The position numbers were made by a program, and so were the translations under genes. The notes beneath the pieces are model-generated. The model did not search any database. It was not told the origin of the DNA and saw only the letters and a program-made list of their open reading frames with translations. Positions 235-43,775 of a stretch of 64,000 nt of DNA are shown here, piece after piece (positions within the stretch are counted from its first letter, which is position 1; each line of letters begins with the position of its first letter). Source of the DNA: Candidatus Hermodarchaeota archaeon (lineage in GTDB: Archaea; Asgardarchaeota; Lokiarchaeia; Sigyniarchaeales; SOKP01); assembly GCA_048885535.1 (NCBI GenBank), contig JBHLLO010000002.1, positions 1 through 64,000 of the forward strand, in the 5' to 3' direction.

Positions 235-1407
235 TTAACCTTTTCGATAAGTTCGGATTCTATTTTCAGTGTACCACCAGAGAACACCAAAGGGAATACA
301 GTATTGCCAGTTAATTAACAAATGTAAAAAGCATACCCATGGAACAGAAGTATTAATTCCAAAAAGACTAGCACAATAATGGTCACCATATATAGAATAG
401 ACTATTGCGAAGTAAAGAATTTGCGTTAAAAGGATGTGATAGGTTGATTTTCCAAGAACAGCAAAAGCCTTTATGAATTTATTATTACTCCTTTTGGGAA
501 AGGATTTCATAGCTCGTAGAAATAGAAAAGCTGAGTAGGGAAATACTAATAAGTTATAATCCCCTTGGATTAATGGAAGTCCCAAAAATGTGAATCTGAA
601 GTTAAAAAATTGATATCCTATAAGATAAAGCAGGCTTAGAAAGAATAGAACCCAAATAAATCTGTTCTGTCTAGCTAAGACATCTGGATTTTTGGAAATC
701 CACATGCCTAATCCAATGGCAGAAAGCATAAATAATGGGCTTGTGGCAACCCAAAGATATGTATGCAAATAATCAAAATATGCTTCCCAAGTTGGAAATG
801 GAACTATGTGAGTTGGTAGATAAACGAAGAAGAAAAATATTAATCGAATTGCTATTTCAACTATAAAGCAGGCTATAAGAGTGATTATTCGCCATATTAA
901 CTTACCCGAAAACCCTTTGTATAAAAGAGGTAAGAGAATAATAGAAGTGAAAAGTACAGGTAAAAACCAGTTTCCAGGACCCCAAAAAGGCAATATCCCT
1001 ACAAAACGATGCCAATAGTCCCATTGAGGTTGATATTGAGATAGTGCATCAAAACCATTGATAAGTAATCCAATTAGGGTTGAGAAGAGAAACAAAATCA
1101 CAAATGGAAATATATAACGCCAGAATTTTCGCTTAAAATAGCTCCAAGAATAGAGCTCTTTTAATGTTTTTTGGCCTTTTTGTCTAAATGAATGCCCTGC
1201 ATTAAATCCTAAAATTACCAAAAATACAGGTATAGAAATTCGCTCCCATAAGGCAACCCCCATATAATCTTTATACATCCAAGGAATGGTGTGATCAAAG
1301 ATTACCAAAAAAATCATAATTGCTTTAACTATATCAACCTGAAGAAAATATTCTCGTTCTGAATCTTTAACTTCGATATCGCTATTTAATACGGATATTT
1401 CATTCAT
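235..1407 (-). CDS. Acyltransferase family 3 (OafA-like) multi-pass membrane protein
   Basis: N-terminal QVDIVKAIMIFLVIFDH, IPVFLVILGF, KRKFWRY and GNWFLPVL motifs; about 10 TM segments. Confidence 0.8.
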   Translation of the reverse strand: MNEISVLNSDIEVKDSEREYFLQVDIVKAIMIFLVIFDHTIPWMYKDYMGVALWERISIPVFLVILGFNAGHSFRQKGQKTLKELYSWSYFKRKFWRYIFPFVILFLFSTLIGLLINGFDALSQYQPQWDYWHRFVGILPFWGPGNWFLPVLFTSIILLPLLYKGFSGKLIWRIITLIACFIVEIAIRLIFFFFVYLPTHIVPFPTWEAYFDYLHTYLWVATSPLFMLSAIGLGMWISKNPDVLARQNRFIWVLFFLSLLYLIGYQFFNFRFTFLGLPLIQGDYNLLVFPYSAFLFLRAMKSFPKRSNNKFIKAFAVLGKSTYHILLTQILYFAIVYSIYGDHYCASLFGINTSVPWVCFLHLLINWQYCIPFGVLWWYTENRIRTYRKG

Positions 1408-1524
1408 AATTACTCCTTAATGAATAACAAAAGGGTATTTTAAAAATAAAAATTACAGAATCTAAAATTTGTAAACTTTTTAAATTTACTTAATTTCTTT
1501 TTTAAAGTCAATATCCAAAAAAGT

Positions 1525-2007
1525 CTACTCAGAGATTATCTCAAAAACCATTTTTTCGATGATTGGCTTTTTGGTATATCTCTTATCGTAATACCATCCT
1601 ACTAAATGAGCTTCTTGTTGCTTCTCTGGAACTGCTGGTATGATAATTATCATGACGCCATTAGATAAATATTTGAGTATCCGTTTGTCAATTACGTGAA
1701 GCTTGCTCTGTCCCGAGGGGTGGGAATGCCCTTGATAAACAATATCACATCCAAGCTCCTGCTTGAACTTTCGCATATTATAGATTTTTGATTTTTTATA
1801 ACGCATCCAACTTCTGGGTTTTACATGAGCTTTTGTCTTGCGTAAATCAGTATTTATTATAAACTTATTAACAATACCAAAATTTTCTTTTCTATCAGCG
1901 AATATCCAAAAATGTATGATGTAGGGATATTCTTCAGCTGCTTTTTGAGTAATCTCGTCAAAAATTCGTTGTGGTATGAGATATCGAAAATCTCTAGCTG
2001 CACTCAT
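1525..2007 (-). CDS. JAB/MPN (JAMM-like) domain protein, atypical catalytic motif
   Basis: GHSHPSGQSKLHVID (HxH-x10-D) followed by a hydrophobic strand VMIIII; size of a stand-alone JAB domain. Confidence 0.75.
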   Translation of the reverse strand: MSAARDFRYLIPQRIFDEITQKAAEEYPYIIHFWIFADRKENFGIVNKFIINTDLRKTKAHVKPRSWMRYKKSKIYNMRKFKQELGCDIVYQGHSHPSGQSKLHVIDKRILKYLSNGVMIIIIPAVPEKQQEAHLVGWYYDKRYTKKPIIEKMVFEIISE

Positions 2008-7205: not shown

Positions 7206-7441
7206 TTATACAGTTTTTTATTAAATTTATAAGTTTTCTGAGATAATATTTTCCAAAATAATCTATACTTAAAATTGTTAATCCTAAAACGAAAATTAAG
7301 TAGAAAATTGATTGATGGAATCTGTGAAATGAGTTAGTTCATTGGATTACTTTTATTACTCTGCTACCATTCTTATTGAAACTTGAGTTATCATGAAATA
7401 TATAATTTTTACTTTAACGTCAGATAATAATATAATAGATT

Positions 7442-8170
7442 TTATTTCCTATATCCTGTTCGTCGGGCTGCAATCAATCCAACTTTTCTTCCAGGTGGAG
7501 CATTCCGAGAAGTAGTCGTAGAAATGTGAGGATGTTTATGACGCCCCCCACCAAATGGATGATCGCTTGCGTTCATAGCGGATCCGCGAACCACAGGCCA
7601 TTTTGCTCCTTTAGACTTCAGGGAGTGAAACTTATTTCCAGCTTTGAGGAAAGGTTTGTCAGTCCTACCACCACCAGCCACAACTCCAACCGTGCAAAGA
7701 CAGCTTTCGTGGAACCATTTGGTTTTTTTTGATCGGAATAATAGCTGGACCTTATTTTTTGATTTGTTCTGTACAATGGCAGCAACCCCAGAAGCGCGTG
7801 CAAATTTACCGCCATCTTGAGGAGTTCCTTCAATATTAAATACAAGAGTCCCTATAGGAATTTTTTTTAGGGGAAGTATATTTCCCACAGCAACTTCTTG
7901 ACCATAACCTGTTTTTGACTGAATAAATTCTTCACCTTCATAAATTCCTTCTGGAGGTAACCAAAGTCTCTTTTCACCGTCATTAAATTGTACTTTTGCT
8001 ACAGGGGCGCCTCTTCCAGGTGAATGAATTAATTCAAGTACTTTAAATGTAAGTACTTTTTCCTTCTCCTTAAATGGACGATATTTAATATTTCCAATAT
8101 GACGATGACTTGGAGACCTTGCCCATAGATTTCCATGTCCTTTTCTTTGTACTAATATGCGTTTTCCCAT
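7442..8170 (-). CDS. rpl2: 50S ribosomal protein uL2
   Basis: MGKRILVQRKG, HSPGRGAP, DGGKFARASG, VRGSAMNASDHPFGGG, PPGRKVGLIAARRTG; start taken at ATG 8170 after GAGTGA. Confidence 0.96.
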   Translation of the reverse strand: MGKRILVQRKGHGNLWARSPSHRHIGNIKYRPFKEKEKVLTFKVLELIHSPGRGAPVAKVQFNDGEKRLWLPPEGIYEGEEFIQSKTGYGQEVAVGNILPLKKIPIGTLVFNIEGTPQDGGKFARASGVAAIVQNKSKNKVQLLFRSKKTKWFHESCLCTVGVVAGGGRTDKPFLKAGNKFHSLKSKGAKWPVVRGSAMNASDHPFGGGRHKHPHISTTTSRNAPPGRKVGLIAARRTGYRK

Positions 8171-8343
8171 TAAGTTCACTCAGATTATTAAATTACTTTT
8201 TTGTAATTAAGGAAAGTTTAAATTTTTTTTCTTTTTATGGATTATTTTAAAGATTTAAACTTAGTATTCAATATTTAGGACTTACAAAGAGCATTTAAGA
8301 TTCATAAGATAATTTAAAAAAAATAAATTAAATTATATTAAAC

Positions 8344-8844
8344 TCATTCTAATTTTGAACCACATGCACCGCAAAAGTTTTCTTCTCCTGTTATCGGTTC
8401 TCCACAATTTGGACAGAATTTCTTTTCCTCGCTTGGGCTGGGTTCTTCTTCTGGTTGAGCTTCAACAGACTCCACGGGTGAAGCTGCTGGCTCTTGAAGT
8501 GATGGAGCAGAAATTTCGTTATAAATAGAAGTCCAAATCTTTTGAGTAGGTAAATTTTTTCCGTGAGTCGAACACGCACATTTAATCAGAGTCCAAGGTC
8601 CCTTTACTTTCAAAAAATCGACTTTAGCTTCTTGACCGCATTTATAACAACGAAAGACAGAATCTTTTATATATGGTAAAAATAGATTCTTTTGCATTAA
8701 AGGGACATTAAAACTTCGTCCACCATGAATTGGACATCTTTGCTTAACAATCATTTTATTTCCGGCAACTTTTAAAACATAAATAGCCCCCATGGCTCCA
8801 CAACGAGGGCAGCTAAATATTTTGCTATAATCTTGCTGAGTCAT
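8344..8844 (-). CDS. Multi-zinc-ribbon protein
   Basis: Two internal repeats CxxCG...CxxHG, an acidic Pro-rich linker, and a C-terminal FCPNCG...FCGACG ribbon. Confidence 0.75.
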   Translation of the reverse strand: MTQQDYSKIFSCPRCGAMGAIYVLKVAGNKMIVKQRCPIHGGRSFNVPLMQKNLFLPYIKDSVFRCYKCGQEAKVDFLKVKGPWTLIKCACSTHGKNLPTQKIWTSIYNEISAPSLQEPAASPVESVEAQPEEEPSPSEEKKFCPNCGEPITGEENFCGACGSKLE

Positions 8845-8973
8845 TGAATTTTCTTCTCTATATTAATTTATTAAGAAAGAAAAGAAAAATCTAACTTAAA
8901 TTTTTTATTGTGCCAAAATTTTGAAGTTATGCAAATTAACATTAATGCACTTTTGAATTGAAAAAGAATTAAA

Positions 8974-10332
8974 TTAAAGTTTTTTATCTTTTAGTAATTG
9001 ATCGATATTATAGTTAAAGGCAATTGGTAATTCTCGGTCTATAAATTCTCCTGCAATATTTTTTAATAATAAGTTTCTTATCTCTTTTGGTTCATTTGTT
9101 TGTCCTAAAACCCATCCAAGCTTTATATATCCGGTTTCTGGAAGCAAATTTCGTCCAGGAATTACTCCTATGTTTAATAACTCTCGACCTGTCGAATAAA
9201 CATTCATTCCAGTAAAACCGTGTAGAGTCTGGACTGTCATTAAGACTATAATCCCCTCTTGAGTAGCTCTTTCAACAGATTTATACAAATTCTTACTCAC
9301 ATGACCTAATCCTGTACCTCCAATAACAATCCCTTTATAATCTTTATCAATATAGAAATCAATTAATTCACTTTCTAAACCAGGATATGAATGAATTAAG
9401 GCTACTTTCTTTTCAAAATTTGTAAGTGCTATAACCTCTTTCTTGTCTCTTTTGTTATAATTTTTCTTAAATATTGTTATTTTTCGATTTCTAACCATCC
9501 CTAATGGGATATCATCGATGGTTCTAAATGTATCTCTAACTGATGAATGCATTTTTCTTACAAGAGTTCCTCTATGGATCAACCCATAATCATGTGAAGA
9601 TGAGCCCAACATTGTGACAACTACCTCCGCTATATCAGATGAGGTAACAGTAGCCGCATTAATTAAGTTTAAAGCAGCGTCTGAAGATGGACGATCTGAG
9701 CTCCTTTGACTGCCTGTTAAAACAACTGGAATAGATAAGTTCTTTAGCATAAAAGATAATGCCGCACTTGTGAAACTCATAGTATCTGTTCCATGACCAA
9801 TTATAATTCCGTCTATACCTGAATTTGCTGCTTCTTTAATTTTTTCAGCTAATTTTTGCCAAGCTTCAGGTTTCATATTCTCAGATAATATTTCAAAAAC
9901 TGTTTCACACTCAAGATTACAAATTTCTGCTAACTCTGGAACAGAACTAAAGAGTTCACCTGGTGTAAATGAGGGTATTACAGCACCAGTTGTATAATCT
10001 AATCGTGAAGCAACTGTTCCACCAGTTCCTAACATCTTAATATTTGGTAGACTGTTATTTTTAGGAAACTTCTTTTCAGGGATTTTATAATGTGCTTCTT
10101 TTTTGCCAATTTTCTTTATTTCAATAATTTCATTAATGTTTATCCCAATATTATAATTGTTTTCAAGTTTAATTTCTATTAGATTAGGAGCCGAATGTTC
10201 ATATCGAGGTAAAATTATTCCTTCTAATTGAGTTTTCTTAGTTTTTAAATTAATAATATCCCAAATATTTATCTTATTTTTTATTAGAAATTCTTTAGCT
10301 TTTCCTTTATAACCTTTTAACTTTTTTTCCAT
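8974..10332 (-). CDS. gatD: Glutamyl-tRNA(Gln) amidotransferase subunit D
   Basis: GTGGTVASRLDY, HGTDTM, GSQRSSDRPSSD asparaginase-like motifs. Confidence 0.95.
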   Translation of the reverse strand: MEKKLKGYKGKAKEFLIKNKINIWDIINLKTKKTQLEGIILPRYEHSAPNLIEIKLENNYNIGININEIIEIKKIGKKEAHYKIPEKKFPKNNSLPNIKMLGTGGTVASRLDYTTGAVIPSFTPGELFSSVPELAEICNLECETVFEILSENMKPEAWQKLAEKIKEAANSGIDGIIIGHGTDTMSFTSAALSFMLKNLSIPVVLTGSQRSSDRPSSDAALNLINAATVTSSDIAEVVVTMLGSSSHDYGLIHRGTLVRKMHSSVRDTFRTIDDIPLGMVRNRKITIFKKNYNKRDKKEVIALTNFEKKVALIHSYPGLESELIDFYIDKDYKGIVIGGTGLGHVSKNLYKSVERATQEGIIVLMTVQTLHGFTGMNVYSTGRELLNIGVIPGRNLLPETGYIKLGWVLGQTNEPKEIRNLLLKNIAGEFIDRELPIAFNYNIDQLLKDKKL

Positions 10333-38174: not shown

Positions 38175-39881
38175 CTATTCTTTTAAGATTTTAGATTTGA
38201 TATTCTGGGGGATATATTTCCATATTGGTAGTTTTAAAATAAAATCATAAAACTTTTTCCGATTTAATTTATTTTTTAAAATAAAGTAACCCCAATTATA
38301 AAAAGCCAATCTATTGAAAAGGTGCATTAAATTTATACCAAATGGGTTATATTTTGAAGTTAAAAAGCTTGCAATGTAAGCACCTAACCTTTTTGTATGT
38401 GGAATGGATTCTGGATAAATCGATTCGGACAGTGGTCTATTAAATATTTCATAAATTGAAAATATTGGAATAAGTGCATCTAAAATTTTACTAACTTTGA
38501 GATCATAATTTTGACTATTAATAGAGTACATAGAGAGTTGATTTAGCTCTTTTATCGCAAAGTTAAAATAGCGTTCTTTGAAATTTAACCACATTTTTGC
38601 CATTAAATCCTTTATTTCAACTATTTCATTAAGGATCTCTTCTTCTTCAAAATCAAAGCCATATTTTTTTTCATAATATTTTAGACATAATAAAAAAATC
38701 GAATCTATTGATTCATAGTTTAATTCTTCATCATTTTTCTTGCCTTGAATTAAATACTTCATTTCTTCATTTGTTAAAGGATGTAATGTATGAGTATATA
38801 GTGGAGTTGTCCATAATAGTTTCAAAATTTTTTCCATAACGTAGATATATAGGTTAAATTTCTCAATCTCAAAAAGTTTTTTAGAAGATTCAAGTATAGC
38901 CCATTTAAATCTTTTTGATCTATTGAAAAATAATTTTAGCTTATTATATCGGCTTAATCTACTTTTTAGATTTCTTTTTTCATTTTTATAGACTATAATT
39001 TTTTCAATTAAAATTTTTTTAAATGATATGAGTTTCTTAATATATGCATAAAAATCTATGTTATAGTTCTCATTCACTTTATCATGAGGAATTAAAGGAA
39101 TATTTAATATTTTTTTAGGCGGAGTTAATTCAATACTCATAGAGTGATCTCCAATTGAATAGGAAAAGTAAATTTCTTGAAGAACTTCATCTAATGATCT
39201 AAAAGTCCCAAGATTTTTTGGATCTTTAGTAAAATATCCATGTAAAAGAGTATCTATGCCTTTATAGACGTTGTTATTATATTCTGAGATAATTATTGAC
39301 TCAAATTCCCCAGGGTGATGTCTTTTAATATTATATCTTTTGGATACTAAAAAGATTGCCTGGTTTGCTCTGTGGCATACAGTGTGACTCCATTTTAAAA
39401 TTGGTTCCAAAATTTTTCCATAAGTCAATATATATCCATAGAATTCAGGACCAAAATATATTGGAAAACCAAATCCACGAGATGTTGCAAATGTAAATTG
39501 AAAGAGGTGTCTTACTTTCTCCCCTTTTAATAATCCTGGGAATTTATAATGTAATACAAGCTTAGGATATAATGCATCACAACCTAGATTCATCCAAGCT
39601 TCGAATAAAATGAAACTATCAGGAAATTCCGACGAATCTCTATTGTAAATTAAATCACTCGTTAATGTATCTAAAGCCGATGGAAGTAAATAAAGCTTAT
39701 CTCCTTTATAATTGATAGTTTCACGTATAAAAGGTTTTATTTGATTCTTTATTTGAGCTTTTTTATAATAATAGCGATTCATTACTCTTATTAATGAAGG
39801 AATCTCTAAAATCTGCCTTTTGAGATCATGGGAAACTTTTATAGTAGAATAGCCTTGAATTTCATGTTTAGATTGCTCCAA
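38175..39881 (-). CDS. Hypothetical protein (568 aa)
   Basis: Long ORF, no motif recognised. Confidence 0.65.
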   Translation of the reverse strand: MEQSKHEIQGYSTIKVSHDLKRQILEIPSLIRVMNRYYYKKAQIKNQIKPFIRETINYKGDKLYLLPSALDTLTSDLIYNRDSSEFPDSFILFEAWMNLGCDALYPKLVLHYKFPGLLKGEKVRHLFQFTFATSRGFGFPIYFGPEFYGYILTYGKILEPILKWSHTVCHRANQAIFLVSKRYNIKRHHPGEFESIIISEYNNNVYKGIDTLLHGYFTKDPKNLGTFRSLDEVLQEIYFSYSIGDHSMSIELTPPKKILNIPLIPHDKVNENYNIDFYAYIKKLISFKKILIEKIIVYKNEKRNLKSRLSRYNKLKLFFNRSKRFKWAILESSKKLFEIEKFNLYIYVMEKILKLLWTTPLYTHTLHPLTNEEMKYLIQGKKNDEELNYESIDSIFLLCLKYYEKKYGFDFEEEEILNEIVEIKDLMAKMWLNFKERYFNFAIKELNQLSMYSINSQNYDLKVSKILDALIPIFSIYEIFNRPLSESIYPESIPHTKRLGAYIASFLTSKYNPFGINLMHLFNRLAFYNWGYFILKNKLNRKKFYDFILKLPIWKYIPQNIKSKILKE

Positions 39882-40020: not shown

Positions 40021-40485
40021 TTAACTTGGTGTTTTTCGTTTATTAAAAAGTTGTTTAAGTTCACTCATTATAGCTCCTCTCAAAGTTATTGGACTAGCAG
40101 GTCGAGCGGATCCTGGACCTCCAGGTGGACCTCCAGGGGGCGGTGGTGGACCTCCAGGGGGTGGACGAGGACTTCCTGCAGGTGTACCACTGGGTGGACC
40201 TCCAGGGGGTGGAGGAGCACTATTTGGAGCTTTTGGTGCGGATACTATAGGCGCTACGGTACCTCCAGTTGACTTATAAATAGCTATTTCGTTACTCAAT
40301 GTATTAACTTTAGTTTCTAATGTTGATAATTTTTGATGAATAGATGATAATGATTGATCTACTAAATCAGGAATTCTAAGAATCATAGACATCATTCTTT
40401 CGACAATATCTCCGAAAGCATTTAACTTTTCTTCGAGAGGAGCCTTTCTAGTTTCTTGCATGAAATTTGCGAATTCTTCTGCCAT
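40021..40485 (-). CDS. Coiled-coil + polyproline protein with a C-terminal amphipathic basic helix
   Basis: Heptads LSSIHQKLSTLETKVNTLSNEI; PPPPGG, PPPPPGG tracts; LRGAIMSELKQLFNKRK. Confidence 0.75.
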   Translation of the reverse strand: MAEEFANFMQETRKAPLEEKLNAFGDIVERMMSMILRIPDLVDQSLSSIHQKLSTLETKVNTLSNEIAIYKSTGGTVAPIVSAPKAPNSAPPPPGGPPSGTPAGSPRPPPGGPPPPPGGPPGGPGSARPASPITLRGAIMSELKQLFNKRKTPS

Positions 40486-40627: not shown

Positions 40628-41260
40628 TTAACTTGATTTTGATACAGAATCTTTTATAACCATCCACAATTCATCTAATTCATTTCTCACTTCTAAAAAT
40701 TGATGAATTTTTTTCAATAATACATCTCTAGCTATATCAAAGTCTCTTTGATAATCATTGAATTCTGCATCTAAAATTTTAAGTTTTTCCCCTTCAATTA
40801 GTTTATTTTTCATTTTTTCAACATTTAGAGCCTTTTTAATGACTGCATTTCTTTTATTGGCTACTTCATTTAACGCATCTGCAAATTCTATTTTTTTCTC
40901 AATAAAATATTCTTTCTTCAAAGCAAGGTTTTTAATTGCATCTATGTATTTATTATTCACTGCTATATATCCATCATTTTTACGAATGATATCTAAATAT
41001 AAATTTATCTCTTCTTCTTGAATATTTGATTTTTTCTCTCTTACTAAAGTTTGCATTTGTTTAATTACGTCTCTAAAAGTCCGATTTAACATTTCTCTTC
41101 CTAAATTTGCTTTAGTAAGATTTTCTGCATATTTTTTTTGAGCATTGATAAGATCATATTGAGCTTTTGCCAGTTTTCTTATTTGATTGACTAACTCTTT
41201 CTCTGTTCCTGCTAATTCAAGCTCATCCTCATGCGTAATAATAGGGCTCATTTTTATCAA
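40628..41260 (-). CDS. All-helical coiled-coil protein, BAR-like
   Basis: About 210 aa, no Pro after residue 6, three long predicted helices. Confidence 0.6.
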   Translation of the reverse strand: MIKMSPIITHEDELELAGTEKELVNQIRKLAKAQYDLINAQKKYAENLTKANLGREMLNRTFRDVIKQMQTLVREKKSNIQEEEINLYLDIIRKNDGYIAVNNKYIDAIKNLALKKEYFIEKKIEFADALNEVANKRNAVIKKALNVEKMKNKLIEGEKLKILDAEFNDYQRDFDIARDVLLKKIHQFLEVRNELDELWMVIKDSVSKSS

Positions 41261-43622: not shown

Positions 43623-43775
43623 TTATTCTTTTTCTCCTAAGGCTTCCCTAATTTTTTCAAGTTCTTCCATTCTTTTCTTCTTTTCTTCTTCCCTTTTTCT
43701 CAGTTCTTCCACACTAACCTTTTGGAGAGTGACTCCCTTCTTAATCTCATCTTGTAACTCTTTATCAATTGGCAT
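43623..43775 (-). CDS. 50-aa microprotein with WH2-like motif (not in ORF track)
   Basis: ATG at 43775 with AAGGAG upstream gives MPIDKELQDEIKKGVTLQKVSVEELRKREEEKKKRMEELEKIREALGEKE*. Confidence 0.7.
   Translation of the reverse strand: MPIDKELQDEIKKGVTLQKVSVEELRKREEEKKKRMEELEKIREALGEKE

Follow-up and report, generated by a model that had tools for sequence, protein, structure and literature searches.

Control of actin in Asgard archaea is thought to rest mainly on profilins and gelsolins, according to PMC13716822, and no free-standing Asgard factor for nucleation, elongation or tethering was described in the literature that we searched. Among the described proteins that come near the one reported here in build are those with WH2 domains and those of the Ena/VASP family. 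WH2 domains (PF02205, including the repeats of cordon-bleu) place a short amphipathic helix amid disordered, Pro-rich sequence and can occur in tandem copies, and they are defined by an LKKV-type extended element a few residues past the helix (PMC6770570). Ena/VASP proteins combine an oligomerizing coil, Gly-interrupted polyproline and a basic F-actin-binding (FAB) helix, the FAB helix being that published in PMC10340426. In PMC3034019, such a layout is said to suit filament tethering or elongation by way of avidity, and the FAB of VASP is itself proposed to be WH2-like. Here, we describe a gene on the minus strand at positions 40021 to 40485 of a 64,000-nucleotide stretch of DNA from a Candidatus Hermodarchaeota archaeon (contig JBHLLO010000002.1), the whole of which we call the window. 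The gene encodes a protein of 154 amino acids (aa) that ends in a strongly conserved amphipathic helix, and a motif in that helix recurs in GTPases and other proteins. We tentatively suggest that the helix docks on actin.

The 154-aa protein is assembled from three dissimilar parts. Its open reading frame (ORF) has no internal stop and comprises 154 codons plus a stop codon at 40021-40023, and it is present as a single copy in a genome of 3.09 Mb. The translation agrees exactly with the protein quoted in an earlier sequence-only reading of the window, which had recognized an N-terminal heptad coiled coil, a GC-rich polyproline/Gly linker and a terminal helix. All three parts were borne out when an AlphaFold2 model was built on a 36-sequence alignment. 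The N-terminal helical part, as delimited by alignment and model, covers residues 1-72 (40270..40485, minus strand) and was predicted to form a short helix at residues 2-14 and a long helix at residues 17-72, with a predicted local distance difference test (pLDDT) score of 90-95 at residues 21-70. Invariant in this part of the alignment are A2, E4, F5, F8, K14, P16, E19, K20, F24, G25, E29, M32, L36 and D40. The coiled-coil stretch, residues 42-70 (40276..40362, minus strand), consists of four heptads recognized by their conserved hydrophobic spacing: positions 42, 46, 49, 53, 56, 60, 63, 67 and 70 are L, I, V, M or F in at least 80% of the 36 sequences, for a spacing of 4,3,4,3,4,3,4,3. Pfam matches to the stretch were weak and to generic coiled-coil families only. 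As modelled, the long N-terminal helix must have a pairing partner, either a second copy of itself or some other helical protein, because a lone helix of 56 residues would not be stable and a monomer would be unable to bury it.

The linker that follows, residues 73-131 (40093..40269, minus strand), was set apart by composition, GC content and pLDDT. Pro makes up 39% of its residues and Gly 22%, prolines occur in runs of 4, 3 and 5, and the GC content of its coding stretch reaches 0.63 against about 0.25 in the flanks, which makes it the sole GC-rich stretch for kilobases. The pLDDT was below 50 over residues 73-134, a prediction of disorder. Four or more consecutive Pro residues are found in 18 of the 9260 genome ORFs of at least 40 aa, and the window protein alone has two long Pro/Gly tracts. 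Finally, the docking-helix motif occupies residues 132-151 (P..LRGAIMSELKQLFNKRK; 40033..40092, minus strand), in which a helix was predicted at residues 135-151 with a pLDDT of 70-81. We conclude that the protein is made up of a pairing helix, a disordered Pro/Gly arm of 40-70 residues and a C-terminal amphipathic docking helix that ends in basic residues. Such a build provides both avidity and reach.

The C-terminal helix is the most constrained part of the gene. Across 80 orthologous loci, the codons of the end helix differed synonymously 611 times and nonsynonymously 347 times in 1600 codon pairs, a ratio of 0.57, while the N-terminal part gave a nonsynonymous/synonymous ratio of 1.30 and the linker one of 1.23 (all as raw counts, without correction for the number of sites). 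The sequence-only reading had named lack of conservation in the C-terminal helix as a refutation, and that helix is instead conserved better than any other part of the protein. Moreover, the core S/T-L-R-G-A-I-M-G/S-E-L-K-x-L-F is present in all 54 distinct tails listed from the 80 loci, and the E, L, K and L of the helix are invariant over seven deep lineages. In the 36-sequence alignment, the invariant residues cluster in two blocks, one in the first 40 residues and the other from P132 to F147, the latter comprising P132, L135, R136, G137, A138, I139, E142, L143, K144, L146 and F147.

The family is Asgard-wide, has no Pfam family and is undescribed in the literature searched. A word-indexed search returned 197 relatives at an E value of ≤0.01, all of them 126-191 aa long, and those with names were hypothetical proteins of Promethearchaeota, Loki- or Thorarchaeota. 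A relative was encoded at 119 loci in a scan of species-representative genomes. By profile search, 235 of 400 genomes of the phylum matched; the rate was 122 of 134 in the organism's own family and 14 of 14 in a sister family, and no match was obtained in f13 (0/31), f15 (0/12), f16 (0/22) or f18 (0/12). Distant orthologs labelled Thor-like, Odin-like and others retain the three-part build. Among 120 cluster representatives, the linker was 39-68 residues long (median, 52) with a Pro fraction of 0.38, and a Pro run of at least 3 was present in 119 and one of at least 5 in 100. Polyproline is a trait of the Lokiarchaeales-like order; the trait of the family at large is a flexible spacer rich in Pro, Ala, Gly and Ser. 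No family was assigned from Pfam, from the sequences in the PDB or from the ESM Atlas, where the protein hit only its own unnamed clusters. In addition, the Asgard literature searched on WH2 and actin, polyproline and profilin, Arf helices and BAR domains, including passages of PMC9433394, PMC8410842, PMC12962969, PMC11914678, 10.1101/2024.02.28.582541 and PMC13716822, yielded no description of the protein, the tail module or the motif.

How the end helix is used elsewhere argues that it is a module in its own right. The motif reads R-x-x-hydrophobic-hydrophobic-x-E-L-K-x-hydrophobic-hydrophobic followed by basic residues, and a 30-residue profile of the helix matched 95 of the 101 genomes of the class. 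We took 20 loci with nonorthologous matches, and these held 22 motif-bearing proteins. Eight were Arf/Rag-like GTPases with the motif at the C terminus (one of them split into two ORFs). One Ras-like GTPase and two leucine-rich-repeat (LRR) proteins carried it internally, and the remainder were a HEAT-repeat protein, four proteins of unknown family and six small paralogs. A 306-aa protein encoded in genome G128 (L173:1168-2088 (-), identical to L194:4868-5788 (-)) matched no Pfam family and has three copies, one N-terminal, one in the middle and one C-terminal; we note that the same protein has cysteine pairs that suggest a zinc ribbon. When the 23 motif copies in other architectures were counted by eye, the E was present in 23/23, the exact E-L-K in 19/23 and the R six residues before the E in at least 22/23. 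In the 36-sequence alignment of the family itself, R136, E142 and K144 are invariant, such that polar residues are conserved as strongly as hydrophobic ones. The end helix thus appears to be a portable, short protein-docking motif rather than a generic lipid-binding helix, because conserved polar residues flank a narrow hydrophobic stripe and because the motif is used at any position in the chain.

Outside its own family, the 154-aa protein is related to the tails of larger GTPases. Of 199 matches that a full HMMER search with the family profile returned from 1.84 billion representatives at an E value of ≤0.001, some were longer proteins in which the module formed a C-terminal tail. A word search for longer relatives had yielded only 2 matches, as polyproline words crowded out the relatives, and the fused forms were recovered by the profile search. 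In four of the fused proteins, P0159, P0206, P0231 and P0198 (399-464 aa), an HhH-like start and an Arf/Gtr1-RagA-type GTPase domain (E values of 1e-19 to 1e-24) are followed by the helix, the Pro-rich linker and the end helix. Together the four matches extended over profile positions 15-150 (17-150 in P0159, 16-150 in P0206 and 15-150 in P0231). One tail-bearing GTPase carries the source name "ADP-ribosylation factor-like protein." The genome of the window encodes a paralogous tail of its own at C29:4427-5653 (-), in a 408-aa protein with an HhH-like N-terminal region, an Arf match (1.6e-22) and an E-L-K-Q-L-F end helix, and this protein matched the family profile at an E value of 2e-5 with both ends aligned. 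Many tail-bearing GTPase paralogs are present in G128, a class-level relative.

In these Arf/Gtr1-RagA-like GTPases (about 400-465 aa), the parts of the tail come in the same order as in the window protein: a G-x-x-V-E-x-x-M helix with heptads, a Pro-rich linker, and an E-L-K-x-L-F helix with a basic tail. The window protein, by contrast, has neither the G domain nor the HhH-like region, and its end helix is stricter and its linker richer in polyproline. The alignments indicate that the window protein is the free-standing form of an Asgard Arf/Gtr1-RagA-like GTPase tail. A 238-aa gene adjoins the C29:4427-5653 GTPase, and its counterparts beside orthologous GTPases elsewhere belong to the PAP2 family. 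A tail fragment, P0234, also matched CCDC53, a subunit of WASH, at an E value of 5e-4, which is below the cut-off; CCDC53 was not among the families listed for the 36 members, and we set the match aside as an artifact of coiled-coil and Pro-rich sequence.

What the helix docks on is the harder question. We favor, tentatively and with less than even confidence, the reading that the 154-aa protein is an actin-docking adaptor with Lokiactin as its target. The end helix would bind a protein surface that is itself conserved, the likeliest being the hydrophobic cleft of the Lokiactin barbed face, and the docking would resemble that of the first helix of a WH2 domain or of the WH2-like FAB of VASP. 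Once the N-terminal helices had paired, at least two actin-docking helices would be displayed on flexible arms, and the polyproline runs of Lokiarchaeales could also hold profilin-actin. The protein would then tether, bundle or feed actin filaments wherever its N-terminal helix is anchored, possibly on itself or possibly on the BAR-like protein encoded next door.

Several observations are consistent with docking on actin. The genome of the window encodes two Lokiactins, two actin-related proteins and two profilin-like genes. The helix has the spacing of a WH2 helix in both the 36-sequence and the seven-lineage alignments, with R136, I139, M140, L143 and K144 standing for an R, hydrophobic residues at +3, +4 and +7 and a basic residue at +8. 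When a profile of the last 30 residues was searched against 177,635 PDB sequences, two matches were returned at an E value of ≤10, and one was cordon-bleu, 4jhd_C. The match aligned two helices of that chain (vSLHSALM and NSVNARQALMD), which we take to be the WH2 helices of cordon-bleu. Moreover, the tail of the ortholog in G388 (GKGGLMGELKSLLAARRKKI) is by eye identical in 12 of 20 positions to the FAB of human VASP as given in PMC10340426.

A further link to actin regulators comes from the other end of the protein. Metagenomic proteins in which a Rab-like GTPase is fused to gelsolin contain a segment with 61% identity to the N-terminal helix. The order of parts in the fusions is Rab-like GTPase, gelsolin repeat, a helix of the window N-terminal type, a second gelsolin-like domain and a zinc ribbon. 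In P0272 the matches were to Ras (2e-38) and the Gelsolin repeat (3e-8), and P0157 matched the Lokiarchaeota 2DGel structure 7whg at 9e-11. The fusions are mosaics (P0272, P0270, P0157, P0273 and P0182) whose pieces match separate genes in the genus of the organism at 61-86% identity, and they are represented by at least six distinct sequences from three sources. We conclude that they are real but rare, and the fusion as a general feature was ruled out, as a single-ORF form was found in none of the 81 reference genomes of the order. Finally, genome G143 has a two-domain gelsolin gene (L193:6112-7176 (+); PF00626, 2e-19) and, 135 bp on, a 697-aa Pro-rich orphan (7311-9404 (+)) with an internal motif. 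On C27 of the genome of the window, we note a 282-aa single-domain gelsolin next to a 129-aa ORF that is Roadblock-like by eye (L200:407-796 (-) and 940-1788 (-)).

Membership in a known actin-binding family is a separate matter from docking on actin. The sequence-only reading had proposed a minimal WASP- or Ena/VASP-type regulator, and that proposal holds for the layout and the indirect links to actin but fails for membership: there was no WH2, EVH1, WH1 or VASP_tetra match and no LKKV-type element. Judged from its sequence, then, the 154-aa protein does not appear to be a member of the WH2, Ena/VASP or WASP families. With WH2 domains it shares the features given above and the residue spacing, but it has no LKKV-type element, and its helix is one turn longer (L-F) and ends K-R-K. 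Indeed, beyond L143-K144 the window protein simply continues as a helix, Q-L-F-N-K-R-K. It has the oligomerizing coil and the Gly-interrupted polyproline in common with Ena/VASP, together with a basic helix that by eye resembles the FAB, but it lacks EVH1 and the GAB, bears a single helix of this kind, and has a coil that is N-terminal, left-handed and heptad-like rather than a C-terminal VASP_tetra. The likeness to Ena/VASP appears to be, at most, a convergence of layout.

A number of results weigh against docking on actin. The cordon-bleu match has an E value of 7.7 and is not significant, and the likeness to the VASP FAB was judged by eye on a short, basic amphipathic pattern. Pfam WH2 matched none of the 36 members at an E value of ≤1 (25 families listed) and did not match the window protein at ≤0.1, although short motifs are hard for HMMER filters. 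There was likewise no EVH1, WH1 or VASP_tetra match in Pfam for the window protein or the 36 members, and no row of the seven-lineage alignment has an L-basic-basic-V/T element after the end helix. The gelsolin fusions carry the N-terminal helix and not the end helix, and in the 81 reference genomes their pieces match separate genes. An actin-related neighbor was present at only 1 of the 20 motif-protein loci (the gelsolin of G143), and none of 45 neighbors of distant orthologs was actin related. Loki profilins are reported not to bind polyproline (PMC8410842), and the distant orthologs of G388 and G128 have no polyproline run while the Odin-like ortholog has two short runs. The family profile matched no genome of f13, f15, f16 or f18, though nearly every Asgard genome is reported to encode Lokiactin, gelsolin and profilins (PMC13716822). 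In three closed f3 genomes, moreover, the motif profile found the ortholog and otherwise weak or unrelated matches, and the best Arf-like matches had other tails.

A coimmunoprecipitation of Lokiactin is also reported in PMC13716822. BAR-domain proteins were detected there but not significantly. An ARF GTPase was recovered as well; we rejected it as support, as the f3 genomes have no strong motif-bearing Arf-like protein.

Two last points against docking on actin lead to a different address. The hydrophobic moment and hydrophobicity of the end helix fall within the selection range for membrane helices in PMC11914678, and 11 of the 22 motif carriers are small GTPases or LRR proteins, as would be expected of a membrane or scaffold address tag. 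Perhaps, then, the helix lies in the plane of the membrane, with the Pro/Gly arm as a spacer and the N-terminal helix holding a partner, such as the BAR-like neighbor. Lacking lipid anchors of their own, Arf/Rag-like, Ras-like and LRR proteins would rely on the same tag, and the Pro/Gly spacer may be likened to the hypervariable region of Ras, Rho and Rab. We consider membrane anchoring possible but on the unlikely side, though not far behind docking on actin. It would account for an amphipathic helix with a basic end (moment, 0.38-0.49; hydrophobicity, about 0.4-0.5; net charge, +1 to +3), for the position of that helix at the C terminus after a flexible linker in the eight Arf/Rag-like GTPases, for a BAR-like upstream neighbor and for the PAP2 membrane enzyme that adjoins several tail-bearing GTPases. 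Against it, shuffled 18-mers reached the hydrophobic moment of the helix in 21% of 5000 trials. Moreover, an invariant R, E and K and a near-identical helix over 80 loci and several architectures would be unusual for a reader of lipid only, one would not expect a Glu bordering the hydrophobic face to be invariant, and the motif is also found internally and, in one protein, at the N terminus.

Alternatively, the helix may dock on another protein of the small-GTPase system, for example a Roadblock/LC7-V4R regulator or an Arf/Rag-like G domain. Binding would be in cis where the helix is a tail and in trans where the protein stands free, and the free protein would serve as a scaffold or a competitor in GTPase signaling instead of working on actin. 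That the module is chiefly a GTPase tail, including at C29:4427-5653 in the window's own genome, speaks for such a dock. Genes for V4R-Roadblock/LC7 proteins are found close to the G128 ortholog and, in two f6 genomes, close to small paralogs. The Odin-like ortholog has a Ras-like GTPase two genes away, and the upstream neighbor matched best in structure to arfaptin, whose BAR domain binds Arf, Arl and Rac GTPases. No partner gene recurs next to the family across lineages, however, and conservation is higher in the free-standing form than in the tails. LRR, HEAT and unknown-family proteins bear the motif as well, and no result points to one particular hub. We regard a dock within the GTPase system, like membrane anchoring, as doubtful but worth keeping in view.

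Least probable by far is an ESCRT-type MIM or another known short motif, with the MIT domain of Vps4 as the binding partner of the end helix. A helix that is short, basic and C-terminal and that follows Pro-rich sequence does recall ESCRT-III tails, but Pfam gave no Snf7/ESCRT-III or other family match in the protein, no ESCRT genes were among the neighbors examined, and the R...E-L-K...L-F pattern departs from what we take to be the MIM1 consensus.

The evidence does not separate the actin, membrane-anchor and GTPase-system-dock readings, and the use of the module chiefly as a tail of Arf/Rag-like GTPases suits the last two about equally well as the first. Either outcome, actin or membrane, would answer an open question. 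If the helix binds actin, it would be a pre-eukaryotic form of the cleft-binding helix of WH2 proteins and VASP, and small GTPases and a BAR-like protein would have been linked to actin before eukaryotes. If it binds membrane, it would explain how membranes are reached by Asgard Ras- and Arf-type GTPases that have no lipid anchor. The family lends itself to such work, as its members are small, abundant in genomes and easy to express and the motif is sharply defined and mutable.

The gene directly upstream of the 154-aa gene bears on several of these readings. It lies on the same strand at 40628..41260 (minus strand) and encodes a protein of 210 aa. In all 77 of the 77 loci with upstream DNA, the neighbor was directly upstream on the same strand at a distance of 92-337 bp, and the whole gene block is syntenic in the one family concerned. 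An AlphaFold2 monomer model had a mean pLDDT of 89.5 and three helices, at residues 10-74, 82-152 and 157-205. Arfaptin was the best structural match (VIA Z score of 13.1 and root mean square deviation of 4.7 Å over 186 aligned residues), although a Z score near 13 for long helical bundles may reflect a common arrangement only. Eight of the top 14 VIA rows and 9 of the first 10 Foldseek rows (best E value, 5e-3) were BAR type, and all named Atlas matches were to BAR-type families with scores of 0.82-0.87, which we treat as a lead only. Profiles did not assign the protein: there was no Pfam family and no match to BAR, FAM92 or Arfaptin profiles, and FCH matched 2 of 21 members at 7e-4, below the cut-off. 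From its modelled fold, the neighbor is BAR-like, short of a proven BAR domain.

Other identities for the neighbor were set aside. Matches to talin IBS2B/VBS2 fell below the cut-off, and the helical bundle accounts for them. PspA/ESCRT-III gave no profile match, and Vipp1, with a Z score of 9.2, ranked below the BAR rows. The N terminus reads P-I-I-T-H-E-D-E-L-E-L-A in most aligned rows.

The BAR-like neighbor invites comparison with MIM/ABBA and IRSp53, in which an I-BAR domain is joined through a Pro/Ser-rich region to a C-terminal WH2 or WH2-like element. By analogy, the same parts would be present here if the BAR-like neighbor and the window protein act together, and MIM IMD (Z score, 10.5) and the IRSp53 I-BAR (Z score, 9.4) were among the structural matches of the neighbor. 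In contrast to MIM and IRSp53, the parts are split over two genes, adjacency is confined to one family and a few relatives, and the best match is arfaptin rather than an I-BAR. The neighbor gene is downstream in one genome and two genes away in another family, and the neighbor family was not found in G128 or G388. A conserved operon as proof of partnership was rejected, as the two genes are about 200-390 kb apart in the three closed f3 genomes. A bolder form of the actin reading would make the end helix an Asgard-wide actin-docking motif, an ancestral "helix-only" relative of WH2 and the VASP FAB. Together with the BAR-like gene, the 154-aa gene would be a split counterpart of I-BAR/WH2 proteins such as MIM, in which a crescent that senses curvature holds paired proline arms, tethering or feeding Lokiactin under the membrane of protrusions, and the motif would tie Arf/Rag-like, Ras-like and LRR proteins to actin. 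We think that extension unlikely as a whole.

The remainder of the gene block holds an Elf1-like factor, a radical SAM enzyme, Pelota and a 568-aa orphan, which suggest no shared function. Across lineages, no recurrent partner gene was found adjacent to family members. The 568-aa orphan (38175-39881, minus strand) is directly downstream of the 154-aa gene, has no Pfam match and is present in 56 of 80 syntenic loci. An ORF of 50 codons elsewhere in the window (43623-43775, minus strand) has a start that resembles a canonical WH2 motif but no Pfam WH2 match at an E value of ≤0.1, and 50 of the 80 syntenic loci contain sequence homologous to it. Outside the window, V4R and Roadblock/LC7 genes lie beside small paralogs or orthologs at L188 (G127), L190 (G126) and L119 (G128). 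Finally, ParA/MinD-like ATPases are encoded beside other paralogs (L189 and L191) and near a 351-aa motif protein (L183).

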